A DNA stretch of 63,683 nt, counting the filler, from Licmophora abbreviata (lineage: Eukaryota), in assembly GCA_900291995.1 (NCBI GenBank). It is 11 parts of 11 records of this genome, joined end to end, with 100 filler letters (N's around TTAATTAATTAA, not from the genome) between each part and the next. Parts side by side here need not be neighbours in the genome. Positions count along the whole stretch, not along the records: positions 19,923 to 26,964 come from OLMU01003225.1; 10 more parts are not named here. The stretch is one strand, 5' to 3'. How positions within the stretch are numbered: position 1 is the first letter of the stretch; every line of letters starts with the position of its first letter. Shown one piece after another: positions 17,515 to 61,210 of this stretch. A model generated the notes under the pieces. It did not search any database, had not been told where the DNA came from, and saw only the letters and a program-made list of their open reading frames with translations. Position numbers and translations under genes: made by a program.

Positions 17515-17614
17515 NNNNNNNNNNNNNNNNNNNNNNNNNNNNNNNNNNNNNNNNNNNNTTAATTAATTAANNNNNNNNNNNNNNNNNNNNNNNNNNNNNN
17601 NNNNNNNNNNNNNN
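17515..17614. other. Assembly join (44 N + TTAATTAATTAA + 44 N). Identical joins at 19823-19922, 26965-27064, 28250-28349, 30146-30245, 38929-39028, 51097-51196, 53777-53876, 55908-56007 and 61111-61210
   Basis: The same 100-nt cassette occurs ten times; the palindromic 12-mer places TAA stops in all six frames. Confidence 0.99.
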
Positions 17615-17949: not shown

Positions 17950-20494
17950 ATGGAAGGAAGAACGAATGAGTTCACGGAAGAGAAGGTCGAGTTCGTGGCG
18001 GATCCATCTCACGCCGACCGATTTCTGCCTCGAGTCTCAGTGTCGAAGAAGATCAACAATGATGGTGACGTGAAGGTGGAGATTTCCGTTCGTCAGTTTC
18101 AAGCTGAGGATATGGCCCGCGTGCTTGATTTTGAGCAGGTGCCTGAGCATCCTCCGGACGGCTCCGTGCGATACTGCGAAGATGCCGGGACCGACGGACT
18201 TCGTTTTCCTGTTCGACACGTTTGTTTGCGAGGAGGATTTCTGTTTTTCTTTGACGTTCAAGATGTCGATGACGAGGCTGGTCTTTTCGAAACGGTCTAC
18301 CATGCTCCCCCGTTGGGTGTAGTTCCCCTGGAAGGCGTGTCCATTGAATTCCCACCAGGAGGACGACGCTTCTTTCGTGATCATTCTCACCACAACGACG
18401 CCCGAAATGGATACGAGCTCGTTATTCTTCACGATACAGATGATCCTAATCTGGAAACGACAAGACCTCCGATCTTTCTTGTCTTGAACGCGATGGGTCA
18501 GCGAGAAGCCTTTTCGAAAGCTCTCAAAGTTCGATCTAAGGCGAAGCAGGAAACGCGGATGAGGGCAGCAAACGTCGCCTCTTCCCGGGAACAAGCTCCA
18601 TCTTTGACCGACGAAACGCTCCCTAAACGCAGTGTACGAGGAAGAAATTCTCAGGCTTCGGCTCGCAGTCGTCTCGCTGCAGAGCGGGCCAATCGCCGTA
18701 CGAATAGCTTTGATAGCGAAGACGACGACACGGAACAAGCCATGACTGAGTTTGGCATTGAGGAGTTTTCGGAAGCGAAGTGGCTCGATGCTTTTTTTGC
18801 TCGGAATAACGACTTCGATGCCCCTGCCAAGTGTCGCGAGTTGGAAGAATGGCAGTCGAACATCAAGAGTGGGCTCAAGGGGGCCGTCAAGGAACAATAC
18901 GTTTACTTTGTCGATGCATCGCGTGAAATGACTATAATGGGGCGCGACATCAATTTTCTTAAGGAGAAGGTGGAGAAGCAGAATGAGCTCATCAAGGACA
19001 TGAAAGAGATTGATTTTGGCGTTTCCTTTGGACTCAGCGGGTACGACTCTGACGACGACGACCTCGATCCCGGCCAGATCCGTCCCGGTGGTGCTCGCAA
19101 GAGTCGACGCCAACGCGACGGTGAGGGAATGGAAGACGACCAGAGCGACGCAAGCAGCATTTCGTCCGACGAAGAGTCCAACAAATTTTCTAAGCGAAAG
19201 AAAAGAGGCAAGGTTTCTCTCCGCTCCACATCTCGGGACGAGGTACCCGTCGAAATCCCAGCATGGTTGGAAGACGTTGGAGAAGAGGTCTCCGCTTTCA
19301 TCAAGGAGTGCCGCTACACGTCCGCCACGGACCTGCTGTTCAAAGCCAAAACGGAAGTTTCAGACATTTTCAACCAGGTAGGGTCTTCCGATGCGCTATC
19401 GATTTGCGTATCCTTGTGTTCACGCGACGCATCCTCACAATAATATTGTCGCTCTTCCTGTGATCTTAGCACGACAAACTGACCGAAGATCGCCTTTCGA
19501 AGAAGCAACGAGCCGCTTTAACGGAAATAGGGCGAGGCTTAGATAAGCTTACAGAGTGGATGAGCAACCGTCTTGTAGAGGGTCTCCGGAGGAAGAATGA
19601 AGCCATGAAACAAGCGGGTAAACGCGAGCGGTCCGATCCACTTTCGCTCATGGCACCGATGGTGTCGCCCATTTGTTTGAACGACGACGCAATCCCTTTG
19701 CAGCTCTTGGTGAAGCTGGGCAAGACGCAGGAAGCTGCCACGGCATACGCTGCGAGACGCTCTCTACTCCTCATGGAGAGGTAAGTCTGAAACCGGTTCC
19801 GTTTGTCAGTGCTGCCGACGCGNNNNNNNNNNNNNNNNNNNNNNNNNNNNNNNNNNNNNNNNNNNNTTAATTAATTAANNNNNNNNNNNNNNNNNNNNNN
19901 NNNNNNNNNNNNNNNNNNNNNNCTTCAGATCTCCCAAAGGACGAAGACAGCTCCATGTTATCCGGGGCATCAAGGAACGTGCCCCCAGGAGCGCTTGCGT
20001 CGATAGTACTTTGGTGTGATTCCGAACTATCCAAGTTCTCGTCAGCATTTGGGGGCACCCGCATTCTTGGCAATTTGGCTCTGTCACCTCCGCCTCGGGG
20101 GGAATCCGGTTCTAACAGAATGGTCGGCTTCGAAGATACTGGTGACACTGGGAGCAAGGAACGATTGGTAAGTGAGACTCCTCTACGAAAGCGTGGGCTT
20201 GGTCGGATAATGGACCTCATTAGCTGACTCTTTTACTTCCTACTTCCCTTATAGAATGCGATCGATGTGGCAGCCCAGTGCGTCGATCAAGCCTTCCAGT
20301 ATGCATCTGTGAACCTTGACTCAATTGGCCTACCATTGACCCCCCGTCTCGCCGAGTACATTCGATCGCGCTTGAAAGGCTGCGAAGCGGAAGTCGCCCG
20401 AAAGTTGGATATCAGGTGGAAAGGCTACACTGTCGATTGGGAAATGGATATTATGGACAATGATATTCCCATGGATGATCATCGAGGACTATAG
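17950..20494 (+). CDS. EXO84: Exocyst subunit Exo84 with an N-terminal PH-like domain; multi-exon, interrupted by the gap at 19823-19922
   Basis: Vps51/Exo84 N-domain LKGAVKEQYVYFVDASREM; LQLLVKLG..AATAY; C-terminal AAQCVDQAFQY..LDSIGLPLTP resembles plant Exo84 AAECVQIA..LEARGL. Introns at ~19378-19469, from 19781, and ~20168-20254. Confidence 0.8.
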
Positions 20495-20585
20495 TAAGAG
20501 AATAAAACGAACAGGAAGTGACAACGACTTACGACTTTTATAGCAGGCCCCGACTCCATCGAATTGGAAGCATCGGCGCCTTTGC

Positions 20586-20957
20586 CTACAGTAGTTCACC
20601 GTCGTCATCATCGTCATAATCCCCTTGTGGAATCATTGCCATGTCTCCCAGTACAGTCTCCGCCCTGGCGCTTTCCAGCGCCAAGGCTCTTCGCTGCCTT
20701 TTGCGCCGACAACATACGAAGCATCGGTAACATACACAGAGAGCGATGACAATTACAACCGCGAGAATAACGTATCCAAATGTTTGCCATGCTTCAGTGC
20801 CGTCGTCGCCTGTGTCTAAGCCTTCAGAAGTATTGGTGGTATCGGTATTATCATCAGGGTCATCGTCAAGCCTTCGGAAGAAAGAGACGTCAGCACCTTG
20901 GACTTCAGTCCCCAAGGAGGCCATGAAAGCGAGTAACGCTATTGATATCAACGTCAT
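20586..20957 (-). CDS. 123-aa type I membrane microprotein: signal peptide, RRL motif, acidic D/T-rich luminal peptide, TM, Cys/basic tail, C-terminal DxxLL
   Basis: Translation shows MTLISIALLAFMASLG.., FFRRLDDDPDD.., FGYVILAVVIVIALCVC, CCRRKRQRR and ..DDDDDGELL*. Confidence 0.8.
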   Translation of the reverse strand: MTLISIALLAFMASLGTEVQGADVSFFRRLDDDPDDNTDTTNTSEGLDTGDDGTEAWQTFGYVILAVVIVIALCVCYRCFVCCRRKRQRRALALESARAETVLGDMAMIPQGDYDDDDDGELL

Positions 20958-21601
20958 TATCTTTTGACAGCACTATCGTCGTCAGATTCTTTCTTGAAGA
21001 GGCTCGTCGTAGAGAGGGTGCTAAACAAGCACTGCGACAGGAGTAATGACAACGGTATGAGCTCTCGCCAAGTCGCGGTCTTTTGCATCACCCACCATGG
21101 AGCATTGTGAGAGACATGCAAGAAAGGCATCAACTGAAGATGACAGAGACCTCGAGTGAATGAAAGGAGCTCGCGTCCGATATATCGGGTTGTATCTCGC
21201 TCTCTCTTAGCCTACTTTTTACCGGCGTATCATAGCACCTATCGTAGTGTGTCCGTTCGGACTTCCTACTCGCCGCAGCTTACGTAACTGTCGCCTTCAT
21301 AAGCTCGCCGCGATAATCTGAAAGCGTAGACCGGTCTCACCATTAATACTTCCGGTATTGTACCGCCTATGCAGTCATGCACTGCAGACAAAGTCGTCGT
21401 TCGTCATACCATACAATTGTGATATTCTGTAGTGCGACCTCTACTGGGCATGGTCAAACTACTGTACAGGCAAAGATTGACATTTGATCGATACTTTATC
21501 ATAATACATTCATGCACAAAGATTTCCCGAAGTATCACGGCCGACTGAACTCTGCACCGCTTGACTTTCTCGCAATAGCCCCGCACTCGCACAAGAAAAA
21601 G

Positions 21602-24600
21602 CTAGAAATTGAAATCGTCCGCGCCAGGAGCCACCGGTGCAGACGAGAAAGAAGACTCCTTAGTTTGAAGTGCGTCAGGGGCCGCTGGTGACGGAAAAGA
21701 TTCCTTGATTTGCTCGACGATCCGGTCTATACTTGCCGTCGTCTCGTCGCCGATCGCGTCCGCCGCCCGAAGTGCATCAGGAGTCGCTGGTGTCGGAAGA
21801 GATGCCTTGGTCTGCTCGACGATCCGGTTCGCACTTTCCGCTGTTCTGTCAACGATTGCGTCCGTGGCACGAGGATTGTCAGGAGCGACGGGTAACGGAA
21901 GAGATTTCTTGGTTTGCTCGACGATACGGTTTACGCTTTCCGCTGTTCTGTCAATGGCTGCGTCCATCGTACGAACAGCGTCAGGGGTCGCTGGTGATGG
22001 AAGAGATTCCTTGGTTTGCTCGAGGATCCGGTTCACACTGTCCGTTGTTCTGTCAACGATTGCGTCGATTGCCCGAAGAGCGTCAGAGGCCGAAGGTGGC
22101 GGAATAGATTCCTTGGTTTGCCCGACGATCCGGTTGACACTTTCTGTTGTTCTGTCAACGATTGCGTCTATCGCACGAAGAGCGTCAGAGGCTGACGGTG
22201 GCGGAATAGATTCCTTGGTTTGCGCGACGATCCGATTCACACTTTCTGATGTTCTGTCAACGATTGCGTCCATCGCACGAAGAGCCACCGGTGGAGGACC
22301 AGAGATCTTGGTTTGCTGGATGATCCGATCTACACTTCCCGTGGTTTTGTCAACGATGGCATCCGTCGCTCGTAGAAATTCTTGCAGACGCGGCGCGAAA
22401 GGCTGCCTGACTTGCTCGACGGCTTGATCAACTGTTTCTGTCGTTTGGACGCTGATGGTATTCGTCACCCGCAACACTTCTTCCAGTTGCTGCGGGAAAG
22501 TCTCGGTCGTCAAGAGTTCGATCAGAAGACCCGTCGTTAGCAAAACCATGAAGACTCGTCCGACCATAATTTCCGCTTGACTCAAGATTCCCTGTCCAAA
22601 ATCATGTTGGGGATCCACTTCCAAAATATCCCTATTGGCGGTCGTGTCCTCCACACTCTTTCCAGATTTTTGGTTCCAGCCTCCTGCGATGGCCGTCGAT
22701 GTTGATGTCTCAATGCTCTTCTGCTCAGTGATCGGAACCTGTGCAGGAGTACTCTCTTGCGCCGGATCTTGAATCGTCGTCTCGGGGATTGCGGCCTCCT
22801 CAATGTCCGCAAAGAAAAAGCTTTCGACTGTGGGTATGCGCTTCTTCTCTTCCATGTCCTCGATGCGAATAATCCGGTTTCTCTTGACGTCTTCTTCAGC
22901 TTGAATAGGCTTGGAAGAATTGACCTTCTGAAGGCCCCGTGTTACAGAAGGCGGAGTACTACCGACAACTGGTGACTGGACGGGATTCTTCGGAAGGTTA
23001 GCTGGAATGCTCGCTGCTGGTGGTCTTGGAGCCTTGGAAGAACTGTTCAATATGCGTTCCGAATCCTTCATCGACACGCCGCTTGATACTTTCGATGAAT
23101 TGTCATCGTTACCCCTTTGAACAATAGGAGTAGAACTGATCTTCTTAAAGCCAGGTGATAACCGCTTGGAAGAACGTGTGGTAGTACCTGCCTTCGGCGT
23201 CTGAACTGATTTCCTGTCACGATTGGCCAACTTTGTGGCTGGTGGCGATGCCGGGGGGCTGTTGGTTGGTCGGCTCACTTCAAAGGCAGGTGTCAAAGCT
23301 TTCGTTGCGGTGCCATCTGGGGACTTTGTGGGGGCGCCTGTCTTCTCCGCAACTGTGTCCCCGGCGATATCCCCCCTTTTACTATCCGAGCGACTTCCGG
23401 CCTGGATGCGCGGCGAAGCAGCATCTTCTCCCCGTCTTGACGTAGTAGCAGGCATGACCGTGCTAGCCGCTGGATTTGGAAGTGATAGGTCAACCGAGGC
23501 TACCGACCTACGGGGCGGCTTCGTCTTGTTCTCTTCAACGTTTCGCTGCGGTAGAACTGGGCGCTCGGATATGCGCTTCCAGGGACCTGTAGGCAAAACG
23601 GGCGTCTCTCTTCTAGCAGCAGCCACTCTTGGCGGAGCCGGGAGATTGCGAGAGGTGCGCTGCGTAGAAGCAGAACGTGATGGCAACGGTGGCGGTGATA
23701 CTTGGGAGACAACCGAGCCGATTGGAGGGGATTTTGATGCGTCTACCGAGGCAGTGTCGCGACGTCCTATGGTCGTTGACCAATTCTTCGCCACCCGCGG
23801 CTTCTTCATGCTCGTTAGATACGTGCTGCCGCTTCCTATCGTCTTCCGCGATGCCTTGGGCTTTCCACGAGTCCTTGGAGCTTTTCTCGCTGATGCACTT
23901 GATCCGACTTTGCGAAAGCTGCTTGCGCTTCTGGACGACCCGATTCTTCCCGTAGTGGCAGAGCCTCCTCCAAGCATGTTGCCGAACACTTCGCTTATGG
24001 CGAGGAAAGGCTCCTTCTTCACTGATCGTACATTTGACATGTTCGTTAGAGGCAGATTTTCTCTGCGTGTGCTTTCAGAGGGAGAGGCATAGTTGACAGC
24101 CTCTTCAGACTCCGTCCTAGACGTTGCTTGGGCAGATACACCATTAGACGCTGAGAGAATCGTCGCTTGCGGAGTGTTGGACGTGACCGCCGTCCCGCTA
24201 GACCAACCCCGTGACGTCGCATAAGCGCTCATACTGGAAGTAGATGTGGTTCGTCCAGTAGCGTGCTTCAACTCTCCTCTTATGGGTCGGTGTCTGACGA
24301 GGTCGCCGCCGGCATTTCGGGCATCTAGCCCTGCGGTGTCTCGGAAGCCACCATCGCCCCTAGTTGGCCTCCGCGGAGGATTCTTTTCCGCATTAGAAGG
24401 TAAGACGCGTTGCTTGGTCACAGCGCCACCCCTGAGATCATCTAGAAAGCTGCTTCTGCGAATGGTAGATGGCGGCGTATCCATCGATCGTTCGCGAGAT
24501 GATGGCGACATGCCAGACCCAGAATCTCGTGTCGAGTCCCTCAGGTTGCGCCCCTTGAACTGAGACCAATCCGTCGGATCACGAGACCGCTTCATGCTAT

Positions 24601-26851
24601 CGAGATACGAGCGTCCGCCTTCCGTCGTCGTTCTCGAGCCTCTGTATCTCCCAGTAGTCCTAGATGCAGTAGGTGAGTCGAAATCTGACCTGCCCGAATA
24701 CGTGGACCAATCAATGGCCGCACGTGGCTTCTTCATGTTATCAAGATACGTACTTCCGCTGCCGATCGTTTTTCTCGACGCCCAAGGCATCCCGCTACTC
24801 CTAGGGGGCGACCGAGCTGGTTTTCTCGAAACGCTATTGCCCATGTAACTTTCGCCGACACGGGAGTTTGTTCTTCCGCGAGTAGGATTTGAGTCTGTCA
24901 TCGGGTATCTCGAGTTGGACGATACTGAGCCCGAGCCTCTATTGGAATTTGCTGTATACTCGGACCAATCCACAGCCGCTCGCGGCTTTTTCATGTTCTT
25001 TAGGTACGTGCTGCCGGTTCCTATCGTCTTCCGAGACGCCTTGGGCCTTCTTCGGGGCTTGGGCGCTTTTCTTGCGGGATTCCAAGATCCGACACTACCC
25101 AACCCTGCATTTCCCCTTGCAGAAGAGCCTCCCCCGAATAGGTTACCGAACAGTGTACCCATTTTGTCAAAGTAGCCCTTTCTTGGTGTCGCTGTGTTGG
25201 AAGTGCTTCTTAGAACGTCATCCATCACAGATCTGCCACCAGAAGACGATCGATAATCTGAGCTTTCCCAAGACTCCGCCCTCGTCGATCGGGATGACGG
25301 TCCCATAGGAGGCACACGTGTCGGTGGTGGTGAAGCGTAGGTCGTGGGTGACGATCCGGTTGGCCAGCCCTTGGACGCTGCATAAGCGCTCATGCTAACA
25401 GCAGACGTGGTCCGTCTTGTGACGCTGTTCGGTTCTCCTTTCACGGGCTGCCTCCTGGCGGGGTCAGCCATGGTAGCCCCAGCGGTCTGCGTGGATACAG
25501 TAGCAGATCTCGACAAAGGAGGCGCATATGGCGCCGATGCTGTCATCCGAGACCTCTCTGTCGTCGCCCTAGTTCTAACCCTGCTATCATCATATCCAGT
25601 TCCCATCGACCCAGACCCAGGCGCTCCTCTACCAGGGCGGCCCTGAGCCGCTGTATTAGACGGAGGGTTGTAGGTGACCGGCGCCTTGAACTGGGACCAG
25701 TCGGGTGTTTCTACTGGCCTCTGCATGTTCATGTTGTCGAGATAGCCTGTTCCCCCTGCGGCAGCAGAGTACCCTTGGCCTCGCCTCGGCAACTGCCTCC
25801 CCTGCATGTTCATGCCACCAACGTAGTCCACACGAGCCGCTGGTCTCGACCACGCACTAGAAGGAGCAGGTGCTGCTGGAGATGCGGTGAGAGTGCTAAA
25901 AGGCCGTGGAGCCGCCAATCTCGACCAGTCCGGCGACACAACCGTGTTCGCGATATTATCAAGGTAGTTCCCGCCTGTCCCACCGGTTTGCACTCTGCCT
26001 CTTCTCGGGAACTGCCTTTGCACTGGACCGCTGCTGAGTGCGCCTAGATAATCTGCACTCGCGGGGGCAGGGGCCGTTGAAAGCGGGGTGAACGGGGCAG
26101 GCGGGGAGTAACTCGACCAATCCTTTGTCTCGGACTTCGTACCAAGACTGTAGATGTAGCCGACTCCCTTTGAACCTGGCTTCCCTCGAGGAGGTTGTTG
26201 ATTGACAATGCCATTGTTCTGACCTGCACTATAAGTGAAACCTGTGTTCAATGGCGATTGTGGGGGTAAAGATGGAAAAGTGAGAGCCCTCGTTGCCGGG
26301 CTGTCGCCTCTCGATATCAGCCAATCCGAACCGGACTGGGATCGTCCCCTGCTACCGTGGGCAGGGTGATAGCCATCCACGCCAGCAGACAGTCGTGCTG
26401 AGGTTGCATATGTAGGTGATGATTGGACACGTGAAAGTGGGGCTGCGGGAGGTCGGTCGGGGGCTGATCTCGGCGCATTCAAGAAATCGTCCGGTTGGAG
26501 AGCGTGTCCATCTTTCCAACGCGCGTTATCATTGTATCGCATATCGTAATTCGCCGCATTTCGCGTTCCTCCCGGCGGCTGCTGAAAGACGTACCCTCCG
26601 CCAGGGGTAGTAAGATAGTGGGACCGACCTTCCTCGGATTGTCTTGTTGCCAAAACATCAGTTCGAGGTCTTTCTATGGCGGCGGTCGCAGCTCGTCGGG
26701 GTAAGAAATGTGAGGGACGCCTCAAATACGGCTGAATAAACCCAGAAGAAACGCTGCTGAGCAAGTAGAAGAGGCAAGAAAGCTGCAAAATTGGAACATT
26801 GCGCCTCCTTTGTCCGTCTTGTATGCTCCCGGTAATCCTCATCATCGCCAT
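21602..26851 (-). CDS. Giant (~1750 aa) intronless low-complexity repeat protein with predicted plastid presequence, one HLIP/LHC-like TM helix and C-terminal 34-aa repeats
   Basis: 5.3-kb uninterrupted ORF. Signal-like ILQLSCLFYLLSSVSSG followed by FIQP; internal repeats; AEIMVGRVFMV...IELLT helix. Start probably at one of the ATGs at 26842-26851. Confidence 0.88.
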   Translation of the reverse strand: MAMMRITGSIQDGQRRRNVPILQLSCLFYLLSSVSSGFIQPYLRRPSHFLPRRAATAAIERPRTDVLATRQSEEGRSHYLTTPGGGYVFQQPPGGTRNAANYDMRYNDNARWKDGHALQPDDFLNAPRSAPDRPPAAPLSRVQSSPTYATSARLSAGVDGYHPAHGSRGRSQSGSDWLISRGDSPATRALTFPSLPPQSPLNTGFTYSAGQNNGIVNQQPPRGKPGSKGVGYIYSLGTKSETKDWSSYSPPAPFTPLSTAPAPASADYLGALSSGPVQRQFPRRGRVQTGGTGGNYLDNIANTVVSPDWSRLAAPRPFSTLTASPAAPAPSSAWSRPAARVDYVGGMNMQGRQLPRRGQGYSAAAGGTGYLDNMNMQRPVETPDWSQFKAPVTYNPPSNTAAQGRPGRGAPGSGSMGTGYDDSRVRTRATTERSRMTASAPYAPPLSRSATVSTQTAGATMADPARRQPVKGEPNSVTRRTTSAVSMSAYAASKGWPTGSSPTTYASPPPTRVPPMGPSSRSTRAESWESSDYRSSSGGRSVMDDVLRSTSNTATPRKGYFDKMGTLFGNLFGGGSSARGNAGLGSVGSWNPARKAPKPRRRPKASRKTIGTGSTYLKNMKKPRAAVDWSEYTANSNRGSGSVSSNSRYPMTDSNPTRGRTNSRVGESYMGNSVSRKPARSPPRSSGMPWASRKTIGSGSTYLDNMKKPRAAIDWSTYSGRSDFDSPTASRTTGRYRGSRTTTEGGRSYLDSMKRSRDPTDWSQFKGRNLRDSTRDSGSGMSPSSRERSMDTPPSTIRRSSFLDDLRGGAVTKQRVLPSNAEKNPPRRPTRGDGGFRDTAGLDARNAGGDLVRHRPIRGELKHATGRTTSTSSMSAYATSRGWSSGTAVTSNTPQATILSASNGVSAQATSRTESEEAVNYASPSESTRRENLPLTNMSNVRSVKKEPFLAISEVFGNMLGGGSATTGRIGSSRSASSFRKVGSSASARKAPRTRGKPKASRKTIGSGSTYLTSMKKPRVAKNWSTTIGRRDTASVDASKSPPIGSVVSQVSPPPLPSRSASTQRTSRNLPAPPRVAAARRETPVLPTGPWKRISERPVLPQRNVEENKTKPPRRSVASVDLSLPNPAASTVMPATTSRRGEDAASPRIQAGSRSDSKRGDIAGDTVAEKTGAPTKSPDGTATKALTPAFEVSRPTNSPPASPPATKLANRDRKSVQTPKAGTTTRSSKRLSPGFKKISSTPIVQRGNDDNSSKVSSGVSMKDSERILNSSSKAPRPPAASIPANLPKNPVQSPVVGSTPPSVTRGLQKVNSSKPIQAEEDVKRNRIIRIEDMEEKKRIPTVESFFFADIEEAAIPETTIQDPAQESTPAQVPITEQKSIETSTSTAIAGGWNQKSGKSVEDTTANRDILEVDPQHDFGQGILSQAEIMVGRVFMVLLTTGLLIELLTTETFPQQLEEVLRVTNTISVQTTETVDQAVEQVRQPFAPRLQEFLRATDAIVDKTTGSVDRIIQQTKISGPPPVALRAMDAIVDRTSESVNRIVAQTKESIPPPSASDALRAIDAIVDRTTESVNRIVGQTKESIPPPSASDALRAIDAIVDRTTDSVNRILEQTKESLPSPATPDAVRTMDAAIDRTAESVNRIVEQTKKSLPLPVAPDNPRATDAIVDRTAESANRIVEQTKASLPTPATPDALRAADAIGDETTASIDRIVEQIKESFPSPAAPDALQTKESSFSSAPVAPGADDFNF
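21675..22480 (-). repeat. Coding tandem repeat, ~102-bp (34-aa) unit, 7 clear copies + 1 degenerate
   Basis: Unit ALRAIDAIVDRTTESVNRIVxQTKESxPxPxxxD; the DNA core GTTCTGTCAACGATTGCGTC recurs at about 102-nt spacing. Confidence 0.95.
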
Positions 26852-27617
26852 CGTCGCTCTACAGAACACGAACGTCATCATCATCTTCTTTCGCCTCTTT
26901 ATGTCGTGACAGCAAATTCTTCTCTTGATGAACTTCAATGATGATCAGCTGCGACGTCAGCTGCNNNNNNNNNNNNNNNNNNNNNNNNNNNNNNNNNNNN
27001 NNNNNNNNTTAATTAATTAANNNNNNNNNNNNNNNNNNNNNNNNNNNNNNNNNNNNNNNNNNNNTAACCCAAGCGTTTGCGCTATAGTTTTATACAAGGA
27101 CTAATAGAGTTGACATATTGGATGGACCATGAGTAGTGAATGCGCGCACGCACTTCGTGCGTATCAAGATATTCGAGAAGATGACATCATTCGAACGCCC
27201 GAATGGTCATCGATCGACTGACTCACTCGACTAGATTGCAACATCAACTCTTGCCCGATCAGACTATCGGATTGCAGTCCAAGCAAGTCCTATGAGCGAT
27301 GGCTGGAGGCTTGTGATGCTAGACAATTTAAATTACTGCTCTTTACTCTAGACGTGAAGCGCCAAGGGTTGCGAAACGTAAAAATTATGACTTATTCTGG
27401 AACCAGACTCTCGCTCGCACCTCCTCCTAGCATCTCCTCATAGCTAGAGCAGCAAATAGATTTGGACTCGTTGAGCCATGGTACCGGTAGGTTGGTTATG
27501 AACAGGGCCACGAAAGACTCAGTCGGGCTCCACTTCATTACAATTCGAAAATTGGAATGACTTACCCCTCTCCCTCTCCCTCATACTAGCCACAGCCCCA
27601 ACGCATGACACGAAATA

Positions 27618-28229: not shown

Positions 28230-28349
28230 CGCCAATCTGGTTTCGGTGTNNNNNNNNNNNNNNNNNNNNNNNNNNNNNNNNNNNNNNNNNNNNTTAATTA
28301 ATTAANNNNNNNNNNNNNNNNNNNNNNNNNNNNNNNNNNNNNNNNNNNN

Positions 28350-29985: not shown

Positions 29986-30521
29986 GGTTGTTCCTTGTGT
30001 GTGTTGCAGTTGTCGCGAATGCGAACCTCGGCCTCATCGGGCAACACCACCATCGACCATCGACGCAGAGAACTTCTGCTGGAGCGAGTGACAGACTGTC
30101 TGAAGAACAGAAAAGAACGTGTGGCTTCACCCGGATTTTAAGCACNNNNNNNNNNNNNNNNNNNNNNNNNNNNNNNNNNNNNNNNNNNNTTAATTAATTA
30201 ANNNNNNNNNNNNNNNNNNNNNNNNNNNNNNNNNNNNNNNNNNNNAATTGGAATTGGAACATGCTATTATGTATCATAGCATGAGGCCGGCGTCTAGCAA
30301 GGTTCATGATGCAACAAGCCCGGCATCCAGCACTTGCATCTGTACCTTCCAGTTACAGTACAGTTTAAGCATTGAAGAGGCCGTTGGATGAAGAGAGTTA
30401 TGTGATGCGTCGACGATACGCTCAAACCATCAGAAGCGTAAGCTAGCGTTTGGTCGGCTAGCATAGAGTTTCAAGAGGGAAAACTAGAGCTGTAATCTAA
30501 CAGATTCTTAACTGGCATTTA

Positions 30522-38800: not shown

Positions 38801-39245
38801 CCTCGATCTTGTCCTCAAGTGTACTCGGCGGCGATCCATCCTCGTTGTCTAGCGGCAACAAGCGCTCAATAAAGATCCCCGAACTTAAGTTGAGCATTGT
38901 GTCAGGTCCAATCGCGAGAGAGTCGTAGNNNNNNNNNNNNNNNNNNNNNNNNNNNNNNNNNNNNNNNNNNNNTTAATTAATTAANNNNNNNNNNNNNNNN
39001 NNNNNNNNNNNNNNNNNNNNNNNNNNNNCGTCACTATGCGACGCCTTTGTCTTTAGTACAAGATTCTCTGAGGCAGCGACCTCCGTCGTCTGAAACAAGG
39101 AGGAAAACAGCGTCTTGGATTCGGTGCGCAGTGCCTGTCGATCGGACGAATCTTGTGAGTTTAGACAGAGATCTCTCCATCCCTGAAATACTTTCAGCAA
39201 AGTCGACGACAGTCGCTCCGCTCGGACTGTAGTAGAGGAAGGCAT
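35876..39245 (-). CDS. MMS19: MMS19/MET18-like HEAT-repeat protein (CIA targeting complex); multi-exon, spans the gap at 38929-39028; 5' end uncertain
   Basis: All-helical HEAT-like ORFs joined by GT-AG introns. C-terminal KPNVISVVSSANDHPSPVVRRVAVDIVNAW matches the MMS19 ending V...L..ALDD.KR.VR..AV..RN.W. Confidence 0.75.
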
Positions 39246-41574: not shown

Positions 41575-42861
41575 TCAGGCGGCAAGCTCCGAAGGATGCT
41601 CCCTCTGTCCCATATTTTCGGCAGTGACTCTCTGGTCGGCGGTAGCTTCGTCGTCGGCTTCGGGTCCAGGTTCGTCTACCTCCATCATAAGGCCCCGCGG
41701 GTTGAGCTGGGATTCAATCTGTCCCGTCTGAATCTGCGCTCCAGGAACCGGCTCAACCTCTCGCAAGACATCAAGCAGCTGGTTTTTAGTAGTCTCCAAG
41801 TATTGTGGTGAGTTCTGGTTCGCCATGTTGGTGGGAGGGAGATGGAGGCGGTAGTCGGGTCCAAAGTACTCAAAGTAGTCATTGAATGGCAACTCGTCCT
41901 TGACCGTGTCACCTGTCAAGACGGAAGTCTCGTACGTCCAACACCGAGGCACATTGCGAAGAGTATATCCCCCGCCACCCAATACAAGCATAGGAATGTT
42001 GAAGCTTCGGACGAATTCAACGCAGTCCGCATGTCCCTTGACGCTCAGGTTGAAGCATCCGAGGCGATCGCCAGACAGACTATCGGCACCGCACTGCAGA
42101 ACGACGGCTCCTGGTGCAAACATCTCCATGATCTTGCTAATAACTGGGCGAAAGACACTGCGATACGAGTCGTCGTCCATGCCGTCATTGAGCGGGAAGT
42201 TGATAGCGTAGTTCTTGCCGTCGGCGTACCCAATGTCCTTCACGTCGCCCGTGCCGGGAAAGTACTCACCAAACTTGTGAAACGAACAAGTCATGACGCG
42301 ATTGGTTGAGTAGAAGGCTTCTTCGACTCCATCACCGTGGTGGATATCAATGTCGATATAGAGGACACGCTCGTGTTTCTTGAGAAGCTCTAGGATCGCT
42401 AAGACGCAGTCATTGACGTAGCAGAAGCCAGAGGCCTCGGCCTTTTTGGCGTGGTGAAGTCCTCCGGCCCAGTTGATGACAATGTCAACCCGGTTCTCGT
42501 TGAGACGAGCCGCGCCACCGATGGATCCCGACGTGTAGAGCTGACAGAACTCAAAGAGTCCGTCAAAGACTGGGCAGTCTTCTCCCACGTTGAAGCGCTG
42601 CAGCTGTCGTACGTAGTCATGCATGTTATCTGGAGTAATGACCTTGAGGAAGTTGATGTAGTCGTCGCTATGGAAGCGTGTCATGGCGGTAGGAGAGATG
42701 AGACGGGGGCGAAAGACTTCCATGCGACGGTACAGGCCGTAATTGACGACGAGGTTGTGCGTCATACGGACGCGGTGCGGCTTCATCGGGTGGCCTTGGC
42801 CGTAGTGGTAATTGCCGATCTCGGCGTCGTAGAAATACGAAACGCGCCTCAGATCAGTCAT
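41575..42861 (-). CDS. RPD3: Class I histone deacetylase (RPD3/HDAC1-2 type)
   Basis: [70 protein letters not shown]. Confidence 0.98.
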
Positions 42862-50762: not shown

Positions 50763-51196
50763 TGTCGTAGTGTCATGTACCACGGTAATAAGATCAGAAT
50801 GTCTCGAGTCAATCGCATTTTGTTCTGTCTTGCAGAAAGGTTTGTGCGGTCTGGCAGCATCGTGGCCTTCCGTCTGTCCGACATGAATTTGCGCCCGCCA
50901 TCGCTTGCGGTGTGTTGAAGTTGAAGATCGCGAGCCAGCCGGTCGACCACAAACATCATTTTTGGAATGCACCCACAATCTCTTTCTTCCATGGTGACGA
51001 TCGAGATTGTTAGACCCGCCTTCTTCGAACGCCGCCTTCACTCTGCACCACAAACGTAGGATGAAGACTGTACATTCACCAATATCACTGATACTCNNNN
51101 NNNNNNNNNNNNNNNNNNNNNNNNNNNNNNNNNNNNNNNNTTAATTAATTAANNNNNNNNNNNNNNNNNNNNNNNNNNNNNNNNNNNNNNNNNNNN

Positions 51197-53728: not shown

Positions 53729-55673
53729 CTAGAACGCCTCACTAGCATCGTTGTCCGTCTCGGCTCGCTCTGCGGTNNNNNNNNNNNNNNNNNNNNNNNN
53801 NNNNNNNNNNNNNNNNNNNNTTAATTAATTAANNNNNNNNNNNNNNNNNNNNNNNNNNNNNNNNNNNNNNNNNNNNGTCCGTCTCGGCTCGCTCTGCGGT
53901 CGACTGCTTCATCCCTGCGCTGGAACTGTCGCTGGATCCACTTTGATCCGTTCTCTGCAAGTCATCGGGAGGCGCAACTCGAGCAGTTCTACCTGCGACG
54001 GCGACAGCGTCGTCGTAACTTCCCATCATGAGATAGCCAATTCCCGCGAGAAGATAAAACATGTTCAGACAGATTATTCCATTGCGCTGTTCCACTCCGA
54101 CTTCGTTGAGGCCCGTATAGATCAATGGGGGTAGCCATGTAAGAATCTGACCCGCAAAGAGGAACATTCCCATCAGCTCTGCATCTTGGCCTTCTGGGAT
54201 GATGGTACTCGATAGGAGTCGATCCGTCGTCCATTTCCACCCCGTCCCGATACCCCAGATCCCGGCGATGATGTATGTCTCGAGCTGCTGTCCTGGTTCC
54301 TTTAGTATGAGCCCCGCTGCCAGTGTGTTGGTAAAGAGAATTGCAACTGAGATTAACGAGCTCCATATGGGACTCTTCAACCGCGTCGTTGCCCACGCCG
54401 CGGCAACACCTCCTGGAACAGCACCAATCAACATTATCAAGATAACAATACCATTCTCCGACGACGTGAACGCTAGCTGATCTGAGAGGTATGTGATGGC
54501 AATCGTTGCGAGAGATTGAATGGCTGCTTCGGAAAAAGCGACTGCGATGTAAAACCACTTGAGCGCGTTATAGTGTCGATAGATCTTCTTGGACGTTCGT
54601 ACCACTTGTCGAAAGCCTGCTGTCCATACGGACTGCCCCTCTGGGAGCTCATGTGCAGCAGGCCGATATCGAAAAAGGAACATCCAGGCATATACCAAGG
54701 TGATCGACGAGAAGACAAAGCTGAATAGCTGCGACATTCGGGCTGTGGCAATGTCGTCGTCGGAGATACCAATCGCTGTCGCAAGTCCCAAAACGAAGAT
54801 CAAAAATAGTACCATCGAGCTGTACTGAATGACTGAAAAGTTGGATGTATACTTGTTGAGAAGCTGTCGGTCGTCGGTCAGCTCCGGCAGGTACGCATAT
54901 GTAATCATGGTCTGAGCCCATCCGACTAGAGAGATGATGACCACGGAGATGGCGATGGCAAGCCAGGTCTCTGATGCGAGAAAGATCGACGGAAACAATG
55001 CGACGCACCAAACAATTGTAGTTATCCTTCCAATCTTCAATCTGTAGTCCGTATAGTCCACAACAGCCCCCACTGAAGGCACCAAGCAAGGACAATTCTG
55101 GTGAGAATACCACATATGCTTGAACACTGCAAGCAAACAAAATTTCCAATCAACAAAGAAACATTCAAGTGAATACGTACTGAGCGGCATTAGAATTGAT
55201 GAGAGCAGCCCAATCACAATCGTGTAGGTGGTCAAGAGTGACGACGGTCGGATTCCGTAAATGCGTTCGTTGCATTCTGGCACTTCGTTCTCCCCCGGCG
55301 GTGGTTCAGTTTCGCATCCTGCAGCCTCCTTGGCTAACTTCAAGAGAGCAGTCGCCAGAAAGGCGCCAGCGCTGACGAACGCAATGCTTCGTCCAGCAGT
55401 ATCCAAGGCCCAGCCGAATGCTTCCTGATTTCCATCATAGATTGGTTTTCCTCTCCAGTACGGATATCCTCTTGGCAAGGAAGTACCGCAGTCGCCGTCG
55501 CGATTGTGCTCTGAAAAATCAACTTGATGTTCCTCGCTGTCTAATAATACATGGTCGGTCTGTTGTTGGGGCGCCGAAGGCAAGGACCGAGAAGCTGTTT
55601 CCGATTCTTCTGTCGCGGGAACGTTCGATCTGTCCAAACTACGAGTATCCAGTTCTATTTCAGATACCTCCAT
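53729..55673 (-). CDS. MFS transporter, UMF1/Atg22-like; intron 55073-55180; last codons lie beyond the false gap at 53777-53876
   Basis: About 12 TMs; GWALD..GR, GAVVDYT, YAYLPEL, IIPEGQDAELMG. A 24-nt overlap across the gap gives ...TAERAETDNDASEAF* with TAG at 53729-53731. Confidence 0.9.
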
Positions 55674-56070
55674 GGCTGTCGCTGTCAGTGAATCAAGCGT
55701 ATTCTCGCCGTCGTGTCGGTCGATGTGTCATGGTCGTCGCGTGACATTTATCGATGAGAGAAGTTGATTTCGCGCGAGAGGCCAAAGCTCCGAACGTTTT
55801 GGGAGCTTGAGAGCTCGCGACTTTTTTGTACTGAGATTAAGCGTAGCAGGCACATACAGAGATTCGAGTACTCTCTCCTCGTAGAATACACCGCCACGCA
55901 CAGCTTANNNNNNNNNNNNNNNNNNNNNNNNNNNNNNNNNNNNNNNNNNNNTTAATTAATTAANNNNNNNNNNNNNNNNNNNNNNNNNNNNNNNNNNNNN
56001 NNNNNNNTGCGATGTCCTTCTCTCACTACTTGCCCCCGCATCCTCCGTTCGCACCTTCACTTCTAACATA

Positions 56071-61065: not shown

Positions 61066-61210
61066 CTGTGATGAGCATGAACACGCAAGCTTGACATTAG
61101 CGCTTTGACANNNNNNNNNNNNNNNNNNNNNNNNNNNNNNNNNNNNNNNNNNNNTTAATTAATTAANNNNNNNNNNNNNNNNNNNNNNNNNNNNNNNNNN
61201 NNNNNNNNNN

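Follow-up and report, generated by a model that had tools for sequence, protein, structure and literature searches.

A predicted giant plastid protein of Licmophora abbreviata combining a basic region of aromatic modules, an HLIP-like helix, and 34-residue repeats

The Rubisco linker PYCO1 of Phaeodactylum tricornutum is a disordered, basic protein with an isoelectric point (pI) of 10.03 and six repeats of ~80 residues; according to the paper describing it, Rubisco is bound at its small subunit by the Trp of KWSPR, and self-association is driven by the Tyr of GTGYNP (PMC10288592). In T. pseudonana, a second study reports neither a PYCO1 homologue nor any repeat linker (10.1101/2023.10.26.564148), so that linkers do turn over fast. 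The same excerpts propose Chlamydomonas membrane proteins with Rubisco-binding motifs as connectors between matrix and membrane (10.1101/2023.10.26.564148), and pyrenoid membrane organizers and tethers of this alga are treated in sections of two further sources (PMC11649565, 10.64898/2026.06.29.735335). The passages at hand from a 2026 review of diatom pyrenoids name linkers, shell proteins, bestrophins, and lumenal carbonic anhydrase; neither "tether" nor "anchor" occurs in them, and no diatom tether was found in the literature searched. As far as these passages go, the attachment of the diatom Rubisco matrix to the traversing thylakoid is an open problem. Here, we describe an open reading frame (ORF) in a 63,683-nt stretch of DNA (the window) from the Licmophora abbreviata assembly GCA_900291995.1, whose predicted product would combine an anchor of the thylakoid type with a multivalent region like that of PYCO1, the type of candidate that this problem needs.

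The frame occupies 21602-26884 on the minus strand, is uninterrupted over 1,760 codons, and lies entirely inside the 7 kb piece 19923-26964. With about even confidence, we read it as a lineage-specific nuclear gene for a plastid protein that would be anchored in the thylakoid and would expose a multivalent disordered scaffold to the stroma; as part of this reading, the anchor helix is predicted to derive from, or closely mimic, an HLIP/LHC helix. What is new is the architecture, in which a helix lacking the Asn ligand stands between a giant polycationic region with sticker motifs and eight 34-residue helices. As the sequence-only reading of this DNA had proposed, no described counterpart was found in the literature and databases searched; the kinds of component are known, both as LHC-helix fusions and as membrane-anchored multivalent disordered scaffolds. 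The parts of the ORF are the following.

21602..26884, minus strand: whole ORF of 1760 codons and a stop, read as one exon under the standard code
26741..26884, minus strand: signal-peptide-like N-terminus, residues 1-48, with h-region 30-45 and c-region SSG (inspection and hydropathy)
26660..26740, minus strand: transit-peptide-like stretch beginning at Phe49 (FIQPYLRRPSHFLPRRAATAAI...; inspection)
23585..26659, minus strand: basic low-complexity region, residues ~76-1100, with aromatic modules and large internal duplications
25919..25981, minus strand: module 1, GTGGNYLDNIANTVVSPDWSR, residues 302-322
25691..25753, minus strand: module 2, GTGYLDNMNMQRPVETPDWSQ, residues 378-398
24959..25021, minus strand: module 3, GTGSTYLKNMKKPRAAVDWSE, residues 622-642, with the basic cluster ARKAPKPRRRPKASRK just before it
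24701..24763, minus strand: module 4, GSGSTYLDNMKKPRAAIDWST, residues 708-728
24560..24622, minus strand: module 5, EGGRSYLDSMKRSRDPTDWSQ, residues 755-775
23774..23836, minus strand: module 6, GSGSTYLTSMKKPRVAKNWST, residues 1017-1037
22895..23584, minus strand: aromatic-poor, P/S/K/A-rich basic stretch, residues 1101-1330 (3/230 aromatic; pI 11.0)
22592..22894, minus strand: acidic juxtamembrane segment, residues 1331-1431 (pI 4.4 for 1331-1430)
22487..22591, minus strand: HLIP/LHC-like transmembrane (TM) helix GILSQAEIMVGRVFMVLLTTGLLIELLTTETFPQQ, residues 1432-1466 (HLIP profile, hhalign)
21653..22486, minus strand: eight 34-residue amphipathic helical repeats and a partial ninth, residues 1467-1744
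21605..21652, minus strand: C-terminal tail SFSSAPVAPGADDFNF (inspection)

HLIP loci were retrieved with a back-translated HLIP motif, which gave at least 121, nearly all of the 80 listed being cyanobacterial, and a hidden Markov model (HMM) of 45 positions was made from 21 small cyanobacterial open frames. This HLIP HMM matched residues 1432-1466 with an E-value of 7.5e-6 at Z=1, aligning GILSQAEIMVGRVFMVLLTTGLLIELLTTETFPQQ with gftpyAEllNGRlAMiGFvallltEllTgqgilhl, and the score was 19.4-19.5 bits for the isolated segment and 10.5 bits in the whole protein. Among composition-preserving shuffles, 1 in 200,000 attained the score of the helix, and the reversed segment reached 5.2 bits. For comparison, 443 real TM-like segments were drawn from 1,257 open frames in 400 kb of a Synechococcus genome and in the rest of the window; the highest of their scores was 6.1 bits versus 19.4 for the target. 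A comparison by hhalign with an alignment of 24 HLIP helices returned a probability of 94.7% over 38 columns, and of nine HLIP columns that are invariant or nearly so, six (Ala, Glu, Gly, Arg, Met, and the distal Glu) were kept with identical spacing. We take the resemblance to be real, if weak, and explained neither by composition nor by the segment being a membrane helix.

Like HLIP and OHP proteins, the target has a single helix with A-E-x3-G-R-x2-M, a second Glu 18 residues after the first, and then L-x-T; unlike in HLIPs, 1,430 residues precede the helix and a 300-residue repeat domain follows it. Cyanobacterial ferrochelatase, in which the Pfam-confirmed CAB helix also lies C-terminal to a large soluble region, offers a precedent for the fusion of an HLIP helix to a large stromal domain. 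In the target motif E-I-M-V-G-R, the Glu and Arg are present, and Val occupies the position that is Asn in 24/24 of the aligned HLIP helices; the chlorophyll-binding motif E-x-x-N/H-x-R is not formed. Because the resemblance is too weak and the Asn ligand is missing, the protein was not filed as a chlorophyll-binding member. The single LHC-type helix claimed from the sequence thus stands as a profile match above chance in the shuffles, the TM segments, the reversal, and hhalign, and not as a family member, Pfam being silent and the ligand lost.

A functional HLIP/OHP-type factor for pigment handling or photosystem assembly, to which the long region would add regulation or recruitment, would account for the profile similarity and the retained Glu and Arg, and the family does fuse to ferrochelatase. 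We nevertheless hold such a function to be very unlikely, since Val, Phe, and Leu-Leu stand in the places of Asn, Ala, and Gly-Phe, respectively, the score is at most one third of that of true members, and the other 1,700 residues hint at neither pigment nor assembly. A complex prediction with two copies of residues 1415-1500 gave a score of 0.00, which counts neither for nor against pairing of the helix. Just ahead of the helix, at residues ~1422-1431 (22592-22620, minus strand), the string D-F-G-Q-G recalls, with two extra residues, the (W/F)-G-F/W that precedes A-E in the aligned HLIP helices; it lies outside the confident alignment. A separate observation concerns natural diverged HLIP helices: three tandem HLIP-like frames (L123, L128, and L132) at about 182.4-183.3 kb of contig C137 of a Nostoc-type genome (G004) have the Met of NGRxAM replaced (NGRLAAIGF) and score 32-40 bits.

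Upstream of the helix, residues 60-1379 (about 1,320) have a pI of 11.0 and a net charge of about +97, and are composed of 69% S/P/T/G/R/A/Q/N and 15% I/L/V/M/F/C. This composition agrees with the S/R/P/G/T-rich low complexity noted earlier. Pfam found no family in these residues at E<=10, and a phmmer comparison of residues 1-1379 with the PDB was likewise empty up to E 10. Internal BLAST revealed large duplications, pairing residues 558-641 with 946-1036 (49% identity, E 2e-21), 591-655 with 677-741 (54%, E 1e-16), and 474-515 with 861-902 (50%, E 2e-9). When the six modules were aligned, the conserved columns were G, Y-L, and W-S alone, within the pattern G-x-x-Y-L-x-x-M-x6-[DN]-W-S; this core was kept while the flanking spacers diverged, and the modules follow one another irregularly, at 47-262 residues. 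Within residues 60-1379, WS occurs 9 times (of 16 Trp), [DN]WS 7 times, and G[ST]G.{0,2}Y and Y[LF][DKT][NSK]M 6 times each, every one of these four counts being reached in 0/5000 shuffles. The repeated aromatic motifs of the sequence-only reading are borne out by these shuffles and by the BLAST pairs. The Tyr/Trp modules are candidate multivalent binding sites, for which Rubisco is the most attractive of several candidate partners, and residues 1101-1330 form a possible stalk.

A polycationic region of this kind could also bind nucleic acid, in which case the protein would anchor plastid nucleoids or RNA to the thylakoid. Plant PEND is basic in its N-terminal part, continues with repeats, and ends in a membrane anchor, and MFP1 is of a like kind; the pI of 11.0, the net charge of residues 60-1379, and basic clusters such as ARKAPKPRRRPKASRK would suit this function. 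However, the conserved module positions are aromatic or aliphatic and not basic, Pfam detected no nucleic-acid-binding domain, and the relevant motifs are unenriched (SPKK-like, 1 versus 0.7 expected; RGRP, 0; RGG, 1 versus 1.1 expected). The SPKK, AT-hook, and RGG readings of the region were rejected on these counts, and nucleic-acid anchoring as a whole appears distinctly unlikely.

For comparison with the diatom linker, the PYCO1 sequence (592 residues) was taken from Table S1 of PMC10288592. Uncorrected for composition, BLAST of the target against PYCO1 extended over hundreds of residues at an E-value of 1e-10; after correction, the lowest E-value was 0.31, over 14 residues containing the common 7-mer GSMGTGY. 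Scores from phmmer --max were negative, and a PYCO1-like protein was not found in the exhaustive search with residues 561-1760. Neither KWSP nor GTGYNP occurs in the target, and regular ~80-residue repeats are absent. Both proteins have a bipartite-type presequence ending in G|F (a putative one in the target), basic S/G/P/A-rich disorder, and repeated Trp/Tyr motifs, including W-S and GTGY (two copies in the target). PYCO1, however, is soluble, regular, and 592 residues long, whereas the target is three times longer, is predicted to be membrane-anchored, and carries a module of its own at irregular spacing. The two proteins thus have a composition and the G-T-G-Y / W-S elements in common, with no detectable ancestry. 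A literature text search for YLDSL-type strings gave just noise among the matches listed.

These likenesses lead to a special case of the thylakoid-scaffold reading, in which the modules would bind Rubisco or a PYCO1-like linker and the protein would tether the pyrenoid matrix to the thylakoid, as the sequence-only reading had proposed. Its PYCO1-like traits are the basic pI, the S/G/P/A-rich composition, and Trp/Tyr motifs of the kind that is functional in PYCO1, among them the two GTGY copies (one within the common GSMGTGY) and nine W-S dipeptides. The source passages cited at the outset add the fast linker turnover seen in T. pseudonana, a review text in which no diatom tether appears, and the same role proposed for Rubisco-motif membrane proteins in Chlamydomonas. 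In the parts of those sources that describe them, Chlamydomonas RBMP1/2, SAGA1, and MITH1 resemble the target in the idea of mechanism only, namely Rubisco-binding motifs that link the matrix to traversing membranes; they belong to the green lineage, with form IB Rubisco and other motifs, and are likened here by description and not by sequence. On the other side, homology to PYCO1 disappears after composition correction, the Trp is preceded by Asp/Asn instead of Lys and is not followed by Pro, the module spacing of 47-262 residues differs from a regular 60-80, disordered proteins with all sorts of functions commonly carry aromatic stickers, and nothing ties the helix to pyrenoid-penetrating rather than bulk thylakoids. 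We consider the tether a reasonable but unlikely hypothesis: of the earlier interpretation, the architecture has held up, and the pyrenoid tether and Rubisco binding have gained no direct support. In its fullest form, which we likewise rate as improbable, an HLIP-derived helix that lost its pigment ligand would have been re-used as a dimerizing thylakoid anchor, a 1,300-residue stromal brush would bind form ID Rubisco or its linker through its six or seven Y-L...D-W-S modules, and the lumenal 34-residue helices would organize the narrow lumen of the theta-carbonic anhydrase.

Downstream of the helix, Tandem Repeats Finder (TRF) detected a period of 102 nt at 21667-22285 (6.1 copies, 81% matches). 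In the protein register, a degenerate copy at residues 1464-1497 is followed by seven full copies at 1498-1735 and a partial ninth, each repeat consisting of a helix and then a Pro-rich linker. Hydrophobic moments of 0.43-0.62 lay above those of shuffles (p<=0.02) in 7/7 copies, and together with TRF they establish the 34-residue amphipathic repeats that had been noticed by eye. Residues 1464-1760 have a pI of 4.6. AlphaFold2, run on the C-terminal 381 residues without an alignment, modeled the repeats as helical at low confidence (mean predicted local distance difference test score, pLDDT, 40.2; predicted template modeling score, pTM, 0.23). At E<=10, the only Pfam matches in these 381 residues were sub-threshold ones to Phasin, ApoLp-III, and Apolipoprotein (E 0.009-0.07). 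Repeats of the TPR/HAT/PPR type were rejected, as no curated helical-repeat Pfam model matches. Compared with PDB, the C-terminal part hit designed helical repeat proteins at E about 1e-3, and the ESM Atlas gave no usable match for it.

Searches for relatives were equally sparse. A word-indexed search gave 0 matches for the whole protein and 0 for its C-terminal 381 residues, and two metagenome scans produced 263 and 242 pattern matches, with 0 confirmed. Exhaustive phmmer with residues 561-1760 against 1.84 billion representatives returned a single match, P0002, at E 1.1e-4; residues 1-560 were covered by the word-indexed search, among proteins of 968-3080 residues, and shorter relatives of this part are possible. 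The orthologue search suggested with the earlier interpretation therefore came back negative in the word-indexed, exhaustive (561-1760), and metagenome searches. P0002 is a bacterial-type protein of 492 residues with an SH3_3 domain and 34-residue repeats of its own. It is like the target in this period and in a gapless alignment with 26% identity over 202 residues (A-L-R-A ... I ... K-E/D-x-P), and unlike it in the unrelated rest (SH3_3) and in having no HLIP-like helix beside its repeats. The match amounts to one weak repeat similarity multiplied six-fold, and the likeness is probably convergence, curious as the equal period may be. P0002 also carries the string GSYLDS after its repeats.

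At the N-terminus, the 19-residue Kyte-Doolittle mean exceeds 1.4 at just two places in the protein, residues ~32-50 and 1432-1463. By inspection, the h-region VPILQLSCLFYLLSSV is followed by SSG|F49, and the 22 residues after Phe49 contain four Arg and zero Asp/Glu. The frame begins with Met-Met-Met and has more Met at positions 12, 14, and 15, so that alternative starts are possible; depending on the start, the signal peptide would have an n-region of 29 or of 15 residues. The junction resembles the TTG|F of PYCO1, a protein classed by ASAFind as "Plastid, high confidence" in its authors' dataset. A Phe junction with an acid-free stretch is the pattern of diatom plastid presequences and fits predicted plastid targeting. 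Of the signal-plus-Phe presequence claimed before, the pattern is present (h-region, SSG|F49, and acid-free stretch), as judged by inspection alone.

The same N-terminus would also suit a secretory type I membrane protein, whose 1,350 S/T/P-rich residues would be extracellular or vesicle-lumenal, mucin-like or frustule-associated, with the repeats in the cytosol and the helix as an ordinary anchor. Cell-surface proteins commonly begin with a signal-like sequence, run through a very long region rich in S/T/P, and have one helix close to the C-terminal end, as the target does, and diatom cingulins combine Trp/Tyr-rich with basic Ser-rich regions. Yet plastid import would fit the Phe directly after the presumed cleavage site and the Arg-rich residues, none of them acidic, that come next, and the HLIP-profile match lies far above the 443 other TM-like segments. 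Silaffin-like domains are lysine-based, whereas the target is rich in Arg (167 R versus 72 K), and KxxK is unenriched (2 observed versus 2.6 expected), on which ground a silaffin-like reading of the basic region was rejected. A secretory role seems rather unlikely to us.

Under the favored thylakoid-scaffold reading, a signal peptide and then the Phe-initiated transit-like stretch would direct the protein through all four membranes of the plastid to the stroma. The helix would then be inserted with its N-terminal side, ~1,380 residues, in the stroma, and with the acidic C-terminal repeats facing the lumen. HLIP and ferrochelatase helices have their N-terminus in the stroma; because of this orientation, and because a +97 polycation hardly crosses a membrane, the N-terminal side is placed in the stroma, and the acidic repeats would consequently be lumenal. 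Since the helix survives the profile controls, a thylakoid location with a stromal N-terminus is the most economical reading, and the contrast between the pI of 11.0 in the disordered region and 4.6 in the C-terminal part is counted in its favor. With the Asn ligand lost to Val, a dimerizing anchor is more likely than a pigment site. The Glu/Arg pair and the second Glu, which are retained, would mediate pairing with a second LHC-type helix, either of another copy or of another protein. Some 330 residues next to the membrane, ~100 acidic and ~230 nearly free of aromatic residues, would serve as a stromal stalk, beyond which ~1,000 basic residues would display six or seven Tyr/Trp modules as multivalent sites for a stromal partner.

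Several observations weigh against this reading. Beyond the three substitutions in the helix (Asn of ExxNxR, the Ala before Met, and Gly-Phe), the 19 bits of the target compare with 57-87 bits for true HLIP members, a range that includes three ferrochelatase CAB helices outside the training set, and with 32-40 bits for the most diverged tandem copies. Pfam PF00504 gave no match to the whole protein at E<=1, nor to the 56-residue helix segment or the C-terminal 381 residues at E<=10. This silence is weak evidence, because the true ferrochelatase CAB helices reach only 18 bits with PF00504 (E 0.003); in five of the cyanobacterial genomes, its 34 matches scored only 18-30 bits. With phmmer, the protein showed no LHC or HLIP match among all PDB chains, a set in which both types are well represented, and its helix segment gave two irrelevant PTS IIA matches. 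The signal and transit peptides were judged by eye alone, the 300 residues at the C-terminus would have to be translocated to the lumen with no known signal, no homologue was found that could show purifying selection, and the lineage evidence, from a histone deacetylase gene described below, comes from a different assembly piece.

The frame itself was taken as a real coding frame because it has the best codon score, no Pfam family reaches the cut-off in opposite-strand ORFs, and no Rfam match was obtained in the piece 19923-26964; a gene on the opposite strand and a structured RNA were accordingly dropped. The sequence-only reading had the right frame, with a start at 26851; this position is Met12, and the start is now extended to Met1 at 26884, with two in-frame stops in the 80 nt upstream. 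With codon frequencies of eight other genes of the window as reference (these genes scoring 0.078-0.228), frame 1 was top among the six by codon log-likelihood, at 0.053 bits/codon overall. The helix-plus-repeat part scored 0.158, inside the range of the reference genes, and the disordered part only 0.023 versus 0.008 for one antisense frame. The protein of 1760 residues contains S 229, A 174, R 167, P 165, T 161, and G 131.

A young or decaying orphan frame with no conserved function, or an assembly artefact, would explain why no search returned a relative; the assembly does consist of pieces of 1.2-17.5 kb, and the codon score of the disordered part is barely above that of the antisense frame. 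Nevertheless, 1,760 stop-free codons would arise by chance at about e^-84 (3 stops per 64 codons), the module core is conserved among copies with diverged flanks, and the codon score of the helix and repeats is that of the reference genes. Moreover, contigs from an independent public run (X1, which contains 8% of the sampled words) cover 21300-21523, 25046-25080, and 25330-25633 of the region 21300-26960; the one of 304 nt is identical to 25330-25633, and that at 25046-25080 is a partial match with 4 other letters. These contigs are silent on transcription and on the frame being one unit. Taken together, these points make an orphan or artefact highly improbable.

If the favored reading is correct, an HLIP-like helix with no chlorophyll ligand in a 1,760-residue protein would extend the uses of LHC helices beyond pigment handling. 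If the less probable tether were also correct, diatoms would have evolved their own equivalent of the Chlamydomonas tethers independently, and for the first known time an LHC-superfamily helix would be seen recruited for attaching a condensate to a membrane. Its generality is not shown, because the gene has no relatives, and its value is limited by a fragmentary assembly as the only source for the organism.

The window is a pseudomolecule of that assembly, made of eleven pieces of 1.2-17.5 kb, with the same 100-nt linker between each piece and the next; it consists of 44 N, TTAATTAATTAA, and 44 N, and TTAATTAATTAA contains stops in all six frames. Genes on separate pieces are therefore not shown to be adjacent, nor to come from one organism. 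The linkers, each of 100 nt and with no strand assigned, are placed as follows.

17515-17614: linker
19823-19922: linker
26965-27064: linker
28250-28349: linker
30146-30245: linker
38929-39028: linker
51097-51196: linker
53777-53876: linker
55908-56007: linker
61111-61210: linker

Other pieces carry long intron-free eukaryotic genes (42-1592, 41575-42861, 53829-55673, and others), encoding MTHFR, a class I histone deacetylase, an ATG22-like transporter, AAA ATPases, an SF1 helicase domain, a CIAPIN1-like protein, an S1-domain protein, and DUF5672; the ORF listed at 53829-55673 extends into one linker. For the MTHFR, the ESM Atlas pointed to Eukaryota and to no narrower lineage. The best matches of the histone deacetylase have 82-86% identity, and those named are diatoms (a "Pseudo..." MMETSP entry, Chaetoceros neogracile, and Pseudo-nitzschia multistriata), with Parmales, Leptocylindrus, pelagophytes, and other ochrophytes coming next. 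This is indirect evidence that the giant gene belongs to a diatom or a close ochrophyte relative, which is likely provided that all pieces come from one organism. On its own piece, downstream of it, a 123-residue ORF at 20586-20957 (minus strand) has sub-threshold Pfam matches to small cysteine-rich single-pass membrane families, namely CR_prot_dom_plant (E 4e-4), CYYR1, and Hemotin.

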